DNA of 39,816 nt from Escherichia phage BA14. The stretch lies in sequence record NC_011040.1. One strand, given 5' to 3'. The position numbers and the translations under genes are program-made. The notes below the pieces were generated by a model. It ran no database searches. It saw only the letters and a program-made list of their open reading frames with translations, and was not told where the DNA came from. Shown here in pieces: positions 10,741 through 10,987 of this stretch; the first letter of the stretch is position 1; the number at the start of each line of letters is the position of its first letter.

Positions 10741-10830
10741 ATGATGATTATTCATGAGATGGGCATGTACGATATGATTTACCGCTGTGTATTCGTTCTG
10801 GCATTGACCTATATCTTAACTCGTAAGTAA
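10741..10830 (+). CDS. Hypothetical 29-aa hydrophobic peptide
   Basis: ORF MMIIHEMGMYDMIYRCVFVLALTYILTRK starting 5 nt after the amidase stop; weak RBS. Confidence 0.35.
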   Translation: MMIIHEMGMYDMIYRCVFVLALTYILTRK

Positions 10831-10850
10831 TAGAACTCACTATGGGAGAG
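10828..10850 (+). promoter_or_regulatory. Phage RNAP promoter TAATAGAACTCACTATGGGAGAG
   Basis: T7-family core with G at -1; transcript starts with a GGGAGA...TCTCCC stem-loop. Confidence 0.65.
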
Positions 10851-10900
10851 CCGAAAGGTTTCTCCCTTTGTTCGCTAAAATTGTATAAGGAGTAACCACT

Positions 10901-10987
10901 ATGCGTAAGCTATTTGGTGAAGCACTTCCGGTGACACTTCTGGTCATCGTCATTATCATTTGTGGCGCACTGCGTCCGTTCCTGTAG
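10901..10987 (+). CDS. Hypothetical 28-aa hydrophobic peptide
   Basis: ATG 8 nt after a strong TAAGGAG RBS, first ORF on the promoter-10828 transcript; [28 protein letters not shown]. Confidence 0.45.

Follow-up and report, generated by a model that had tools for sequence, protein, structure and literature searches.

The region between the amidase gene (gene 3.5) and the primase-helicase gene (gene 4A) of Escherichia phage BA14 contains two very small open reading frames, ORF1 (29 aa) and ORF2 (28 aa), on either side of a phage promoter. This raises the question whether such short frames are genuine genes and how they relate to the promoter phi3.8 and gene 3.8 of phage T7. The window analysed here is the whole stretch of 39,816 nucleotides (NC_011040.1), numbered from its first letter. 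ORF length alone is uninformative, since 75 ORFs within 4 kb reach 20 aa or more; ORF1 and ORF2 stand above chance because of the comparative evidence. We consider it likely that the stretch is the Berlinvirus form of the T7 phi3.8/R3.8 promoter-leader junction, with two genuine and already catalogued micro-genes.

Layout of the amidase-primase junction

The features of the locus are as follows:

10281..10736, + strand: gene 3.5, amidase/lysozyme (from the ORF list; called amidase in all relatives), stop codon TAA at 10734-10736
10741..10830, + strand: ORF1, 29 aa, PHROG 25602; ATG at 10741, second ATG at 10744, TAA at 10828-10830
10828..10849, + strand: phage RNA-polymerase class II promoter, homologue of T7 phi3.8, TAATAGAACTCACTATGGGAGA
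10844..10866, + strand: 5' hairpin of the promoter transcript, GGGAGAGCC / GAAA / GGTTTCTCCC
10864..10875, + strand: CCCTTTGTTCGC block, 12 nt; invariant alignment columns across Studiervirinae genera
10886..10893, + strand: Shine-Dalgarno sequence of ORF2, TAAGGAGT, 7 nt ahead of the ATG
10901..10987, + strand: ORF2, 28 aa, PHROG 25193; ATG at 10901, TAG at 10985-10987
10985..11000, + strand: ORF2 stop codon TAG within the gene 4A Shine-Dalgarno sequence TAGGAG; gene 4A ATG at 10998-11000
10998..12710, + strand: gene 4A, primase-helicase (start at 10998 by tblastn; annotated in relatives)

The coordinates that the initial annotation gave for both ORFs proved exact, and the promoter, the hairpin and the ORF2 ribosome-binding site (RBS) that it described are present. 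ORF1, with the peptide sequence MMIIHEMGMYDMIYRCVFVLALTYILTRK, starts with ATGATG at 10741, 4 nt past the amidase stop, and its TAA is the first triplet of the promoter at 10828. The last codons of the amidase gene (GAT TGG GGA TAA) place a G-rich, Shine-Dalgarno-like run ahead of it. By sequence similarity the genome is a Berlinvirus, a member of the T7-like Studiervirinae: over positions 10281-11400 its identity is 98% with Escherichia phage vB_EcoP_S523 and 97-98% with Kluyvera phage Kvp1 and further Berlinvirus genomes, and over 10700-11010 it reaches 100% with S523 and 98-99% with Kvp1 and FE44. Compared with FE44, the amidase (10281-10736) has 83% amino acid identity, whereas the adjacent 311-bp ORF1-promoter-ORF2 stretch has 98% DNA identity; this contrast suggests a mosaic that arose by recombination, the breakpoint lying close to where the amidase gene ends.

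The promoter sequence TAATAGAACTCACTATGGGAGA occurs once in the window, and 100 shuffles yielded no chance match. The records of Kvp1 and ETEP21B both annotate its homologue as a promoter, named phi4A in the former. The hairpin GGGAGAGCC-GAAA-GGTTTCTCCC has a folding energy of -14 kcal/mol (z = -2.6); the hairpins of T7, RN5i1, Sarma103, PZL-Ah1 and ETEP21B have different stems and all fold (-9 to -15 kcal/mol). Promoter, hairpin, CCCTTTGTTCGC block and RBS align with T7 phi3.8 and its leader: T7 phi3.8 and gene 3.8 read taattgaactcactaaagggagaccacagcggtttccctttgttcgc...ATGcgcaag, and the window reads taatagaactcactatgggagagccgaaaggtttctccctttgttcgc...ATGcgtaag. The unique sequence, the z value of the hairpin and the homology with phi3.8 thus bear out the earlier proposal of a phage promoter with a 5' stem-loop between the two ORFs. 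The promoter core (10834-10849, CACTA-TGGGAGA) is one base shorter than that of the window's remaining eight phage promoters (CACTAATGGGAGA or CACTATTGGGAGA; at 5651, 6276, 6802, 9075, 12797, 13631, 20754 and 21746). The shorter spacing was kept in all Berlinviruses examined and may displace the start by a single base or lower the promoter strength.

The CCCTTTGTTCGC block 3' of the hairpin is invariant in T7, EG1, Sarma103, PZL-Ah1, fPS-59 and the IMG/VR sequence UViG_2974585782 (L039), while the stem varies. In T7, RNase III cleaves at R3.8, a site a short way 3' of the phi3.8 start (PMC6938266), and because of this position the block is probably part of an R3.8 RNase III processing element, a role it would also have here. 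An Rfam covariance-model search gave chance-level matches only (E above 4), and the number of sigma-70-like sites in the region (3) was not above expectation (1.9 from shuffles).

What follows the leader RBS differs between lineages:

T7, fPS-9 and fPS-59: HNH gene 3.8 (121 aa in T7 and fPS-9, stop-disrupted in fPS-59)
EG1, JeanTinguely, Sarma103 and PZL-Ah1: gene 4A directly
Berlinvirus loci (29 of the 29 collected): ORF2, followed by gene 4A with a second Shine-Dalgarno sequence

The position assigned to ORF2 at the outset, that of gene 3.8, is therefore correct: the leader aligns with T7 phi3.8, and ORF2 occupies the gene 3.8 slot. ORF2 gave no match to the Pfam HNH domain of the ~120-aa protein, and only the initial MRK is common to ORF2 and gp3.8 of T7 and fPS-9. 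An origin of ORF2 by internal deletion of an HNH gene 3.8 was rejected, as the match is confined to the first three codons, with unrelated 3' ends.

Both micro-genes are already known, since they have been deposited, as proteins of unknown function, and belong to PHROG families. Identical ORF1 and ORF2 peptides are present as 'unknown product' or 'hypothetical protein' in the records of BA14, FE44 and BSP161; in those of BA14 both are annotated CDSs (ACF15744 for ORF1, ACF15745 / YP_002003468 for ORF2). Deposited homologues include FE44 gp18/gp19, 285P LXB_017/018, those of PhiV-1 and, for ORF2, Yep-phi gp3.8. The profile matches are full-length: PHROG 25602 to ORF1 with E = 3e-23 (1-29/29) and PHROG 25193 to ORF2 with E = 5e-22 (1-28/28); Yep-phi gp3.8 falls in the sister family PHROG 32729. 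The notion that the ORFs are overlooked novelties thus had to be dropped; the remark that gene callers easily miss such peptides was accurate, as a CDS underlies the match in only 9 of 50 phage records for ORF2 and 14 of 39 for ORF1. The minimum gene length of Prodigal is 90 nt and ORF2, at 87 nt, is shorter. A search of the literature for these ORFs found no paper. Very small ORFs are a long-known feature of the T7 group. For annotation quality the relevant point is that most sister genomes omit one or both micro-genes. We also noticed that ORF28 of vB_ShiP-A7 (NC_048180 29153-29245), a 30-aa hydrophobic homologue of ORF1, bears the published annotation 'carbohydrate ABC transporter permease', a label that is a spurious transfer. 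As things stand little changes, given that the ORFs are in GenBank and the PHROGs and the promoter is annotated in relatives.

Coding evidence and character of the two peptides

Substitutions in ORF1 were assessed in 11 distinct nucleotide versions from Berlinvirus and Teseptimavirus. The ratio of nonsynonymous to synonymous substitutions (pN/pS) was 0.20 in its own frame (0.20-0.27 across copies), and at least 0.45 in the other five frames, which also contain stops. The variable columns were distributed as 10/4/17 over the three codon positions, and the most distant pairs had a pS of ~0.75 (near saturation) and a pN of ~0.2. Amino acid identity with the Teseptimavirus copy was 64%, against 69% for the flanking amidase and 65% for the primase in the same comparison. 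When 1.84 billion representative proteins, a library that under-samples ORFs of less than 30 aa, were searched with an ORF1 profile, only ORF1 itself was retrieved and no remote relative among called proteins.

The ORF2 sample was small, with 12 distinct ungapped versions from the close clade. Here pN/pS was 0.29, and the ORF2 frame was the sole one both open and with a low ratio; against the Berlin/Yep-phi type the ratio was ~0.5. The C-terminal half is clearly homologous in the latter type (LIIGGACLRPFL), and the N-terminal half is poorly conserved between it and the window (48% identity to the first row of the alignment); the phages of Yersinia pestis carry a divergent form of ORF2, gp3.8. 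The strong RBS ascribed to ORF2 was confirmed: TAAGGAGT at 10886-10893 is a near-perfect Shine-Dalgarno sequence and, like the start codon, is invariant among the relatives. In both ORFs the start codons are kept and changes in length are in-frame only. One of these is a 12-nt tandem duplication in ORF2 (KLFG-KLFG), present in three phages (BP12A, L007; PC127, L082; P151, L093) and 14 metagenomic variants (P0007-P0020), in which the copies have since diverged; ORF2 is in this respect a micro-gene that is visibly lengthening by tandem duplication. Three antisense ORFs (10748-10840, 10840-10959 and 10910-10999) were rejected, having pN/pS values of ~1 or higher, or stops in relatives.

The substitution patterns indicate that ORF1 and ORF2 are both under protein-level purifying selection. 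From the comparative evidence we conclude that both are real coding genes, with somewhat less confidence for ORF2 because its informative substitutions are fewer. Conservation in close relatives, which had been suggested as a check on the two micro-ORFs, was clear for both. That one or both are non-functional, as remnants of a larger gene (the HNH gene 3.8) or chance frames in conserved regulatory DNA, is accordingly most improbable. ORF1 is dispensable, most annotators do not call either ORF, and ORF2 and T7 gp3.8 both begin with MRK at the same leader position; yet the likeness to gp3.8 stops after MRK, with both ends otherwise dissimilar and no HNH domain, the codon-periodic substitutions and low pN/pS are specific to the proposed frames, and ORF1 has stayed intact at 64% identity in another genus, a value comparable to those of the amidase and primase.

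The two genes differ in distribution. ORF2 was found in 29/29 Berlinvirus loci, with tblastn matches in 50 phage records. ORF1 was present in 18 of the 29 loci and absent from 11; it had tblastn matches in 39 phage records and was found in a few Teseptimaviruses. ORF1 is an optional cassette of 94-97 bp. In the loci lacking it the amidase stop abuts the promoter, with one copy of TTAATA (gattggggTTAATAgaactcac), and in the loci carrying it two copies flank the gene; the 285P type, for instance, reads gattggggTTAATAttatgatg...aaggaTTAATAgaactcac, a 97-bp cassette between 6-bp direct repeats. The direct repeats fit either precise deletion or insertion. Because very close relatives differ in its presence, ORF1 is dispensable.

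The initial annotation described both peptides as dominated by one hydrophobic helix, which holds well for ORF2 and only partly for ORF1. Hydrophobicity was ranked among the 130 ATG-initiated ORFs of 25-40 aa in the window: the best 17-residue Kyte-Doolittle mean was 2.89 for ORF2 (rank 1) and 1.52 for ORF1 (rank 25). AlphaFold2 predicted one continuous helix over residues 2-28 for each (pLDDT 88 and 83, respectively). ORF2 consists of a polar N-terminus (MRKLFGE), an aliphatic core of 16-17 residues and a LRPFL tail. Substitutions in the core are among V, I, L and A, and between C and G, a conservatism that is partly a property of the genetic code, because codons with U at the second position mostly stay hydrophobic upon change of the first or third. 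As the most hydrophobic short ORF in the window, with a convincing single transmembrane helix, ORF2 is probably a single-pass membrane peptide. A lipoprotein was rejected, as there is no lipobox ([LVI][ASTVI][GAS]C; the window has IIIC) and the cysteine is replaced by glycine in several variants. An arrest peptide of the MifM/SecM type was rejected as well: at 28 residues the transmembrane segment would still be in the ribosome tunnel when translation terminates, and the LRPFL tail varies in metagenomic copies. In ORF1 the hydrophobic run is ~15 residues long with an R, or H15, inside, and a rough Hessa-scale sum over 19 residues was +4 to +5 kcal/mol; for these reasons its insertion into the membrane is doubtful.

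Micro-ORFs in the same slots of other phages

Two slots of the junction were compared, the one from the amidase stop to the promoter and the one from the leader RBS to gene 4. Three further hydrophobic micro-ORFs were found:

Yersinia phage fPS-59 (L018), 1958-2053: MVYTLFFVLIGLVASTLIAAFIHDMFFNDNY; 1 nt past the amidase stop (TAAtATG), own stop inside the promoter
L039, 1958-2050: MTGIGLTLIFIGSGIITFIGWWFFPEHFEL; 1 nt past the amidase stop (TAGtATG)
Pectobacterium phage PcCB251 (L081), 971-1054: 27 aa, MSLLLLFVTSYALYALVVLFMTDKLGA; between ORF2 and gene 4A

The ORFs of fPS-59 and L039 occupy the ORF1 slot, are ~30 aa long and are unrelated to ORF1 or to each other. The third ORF of PcCB251 uses the TAGGAG that normally serves gene 4A, and gene 4A begins 1 nt past its stop (TAAcATG). 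Their 17-residue Kyte-Doolittle means are 2.14-2.66, a range reached by 7 of the 130 background ORFs, and none of the three had a homologue in another phage of the phage database. Together with ORF1 and ORF2 this makes five mutually unrelated examples, each tightly coupled to the stop or Shine-Dalgarno sequence of a neighbour. Both phi3.8-leader junctions might then be hotspots at which unrelated hydrophobic micro-genes of ~30 codons are repeatedly born or captured, a reading that we regard as unlikely. If it is true, a lytic phage would offer a compact example from nature of genes emerging 'transmembrane-first'. Instead of emergence, selection for membrane peptides in a fixed ratio with the amidase or the primase could account for the pattern. 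Recurrence in these slots, if real, would make a useful model of the acquisition of small membrane proteins by phages.

Other small genes of the window were noted in passing. A 26-aa hydrophobic ORF at 8050-8130 (+ strand; MLFLIIASVAATFAFVIIDDNCWPDC), with a GGAGG Shine-Dalgarno sequence, is flanked by the promoter-like sequences TTAGACTCACTATGGAGGAAC and TAATACGACTCACCTATGGAGGAAAC and has the second-highest hydrophobicity among the short ORFs of the window; its position is that of T7 gene 1.5. Another hydrophobic ORF, of 28 aa (MVAGTVAFVMFAIVAFAMVWAAFIAKSV; 18043-18129, + strand), whose Shine-Dalgarno sequence is AAGGAG, has the position of T7 gene 6.3 and overlaps the exonuclease gene at the latter's 3' end. 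The window genes at 12806-13069 and 13066-13248 lie 3' of gene 4, and have counterparts between the amidase gene and gene 4 in T3-like loci (L019-L043): homologues of the 70-aa protein (MIKFIEFLGRLVVRGY...) lie there in the T3-like loci, and a homologue of the ~60-aa protein (MVTVILVLTLISGSGQTISQVPITAP...) does so in L025 and L040. Judged from these gene orders, small genes have been shuffled around gene 4.

Expression, possible roles and known systems

Lying upstream of the promoter, ORF1 would depend on transcripts shared with gene 3.5. Its start, 4 nt past the amidase stop and behind the G-rich end of that gene, makes coupling or re-initiation its most likely mode of translation, which would give a helical, moderately hydrophobic peptide of 28-30 residues. 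That frameshifting or readthrough might extend the amidase through ORF1 and so anchor it in the membrane was rejected, no slippery site being seen; the frame of ORF1 relative to the amidase is +1 in Berlinviruses and 0 in JeanTinguely and 64795_ec1. ORF2 would be the first cistron of the phi3.8 phage-polymerase transcript, headed by a stabilising hairpin, and the near-perfect Shine-Dalgarno sequence suggests that the peptide is probably an abundant product of the middle phase of infection. It would most likely insert into the inner membrane as a single-pass peptide. At a guess, either of the two peptides may bind or perturb a host membrane component. The ORF2 stop is inside the Shine-Dalgarno sequence of gene 4A, 10 nt ahead of the gene 4A ATG, in a junction that is conserved, and because of this position ribosomes terminating on ORF2 may also be delivered to gene 4A. 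Such coupling would not be required, since other genera lack ORF2 and gene 4A has its own Shine-Dalgarno sequence.

The main rival to a function of the ORF2 peptide is a role as relay only: ORF2 would be a leader ORF whose strong RBS loads ribosomes that are handed to gene 4A, with the peptide as a tolerated by-product. Besides the overlap of the ORF2 stop with the gene 4A Shine-Dalgarno sequence, 10 nt from the ATG, this agrees with the direct use of the same leader RBS by gene 4A in other genera, with the last 15 nt of ORF2, near-invariant even against Berlin where other synonymous sites are saturated, with the fast-evolving N-terminal half, and with the tolerance of PcCB251 for an extra micro-ORF inserted in the chain. 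However, a pN/pS of 0.29 and the preservation of the aliphatic core speak for constraint on the peptide as such, an AGGAG of its own precedes gene 4A, and the predicted hairpin over the region of the gene 4A start does not surpass shuffled sequence (z = -0.5). With an energy of -13.6 kcal/mol and a weaker fold in Berlin, this hairpin was rejected as a structure that hides the gene 4A start and is opened by translation of ORF2. We judge the relay-only role unlikely. A role of ORF1 and the other amidase-coupled peptides in lysis, for instance by modulating it like a holin or antiholin or by partnering the amidase in the membrane, appears more doubtful still. ORF1 immediately adjoins the amidase gene and is probably co-translated with it, and unrelated hydrophobic ORFs of ~30 aa lie 1 nt past the amidase stop in fPS-59 and L039. 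Against this, a canonical T7-type holin (17.5, at about 35607-35849) and spanin (18.5/18.7) are encoded elsewhere in the window, known holins are much longer than ORF1, whose hydrophobicity is weak, and the ORFs of fPS-59 and L039 are without a homologue in another phage of the phage database. Lysis does not require ORF1, because it is absent from many close relatives. In terms of holin/antiholin features (a confident transmembrane domain, typically in at least 60 aa), the peptides are only 28-29 aa long and the hydrophobic segment of ORF1 is marginal.

The preferred reading thus remains that of two genuine micro-genes at a phi3.8-type junction. Sequence searches of Pfam, NCBIfam and the PDB with both peptides gave no functional match that would back the suggested modulation of membrane-associated host processes, and neither matched type I toxin families (Hok, Ldr, Ibs, TisB and similar) in NCBIfam/Pfam at E values up to 10. 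Both would offer cheap experimental systems: ORF2 as a probably abundant middle-phase membrane peptide of every Berlinvirus locus examined, and ORF1 through its natural plus/minus variants in near-isogenic phages.

Compared with known systems, ORF2 has the predicted build of KdpF, MgtS, AcrZ, TisB and Ibs, which are 19-50 aa long with one transmembrane helix and short polar ends, but has no NCBIfam/Pfam sequence match to them; unlike type I toxins, it has no evident antisense-RNA partner. The T7 genes 1.5, 4.1 and 6.3 are likewise tiny and uncharacterised, with good RBSs, and are wedged between promoters and larger genes; the likeness is one of small-gene layout, and no sequence similarity is claimed. 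The closest counterparts are the entries of BA14, FE44, 285P and Yep-phi, whose peptides at this place between amidase and primase are identical or nearly so. In the T7 phi3.8/R3.8/gene 3.8 region the promoter, the 5' hairpin, the CCCTTTGTTCGC block and the position of the RBS are homologous to those in the window, except that the window promoter has one base fewer before GGGAGA. T7 gp3.8 is a 121-aa HNH protein, whereas ORF2, which begins with MRK at the same leader position, lacks the HNH motif and encodes a hydrophobic peptide of 28 aa.
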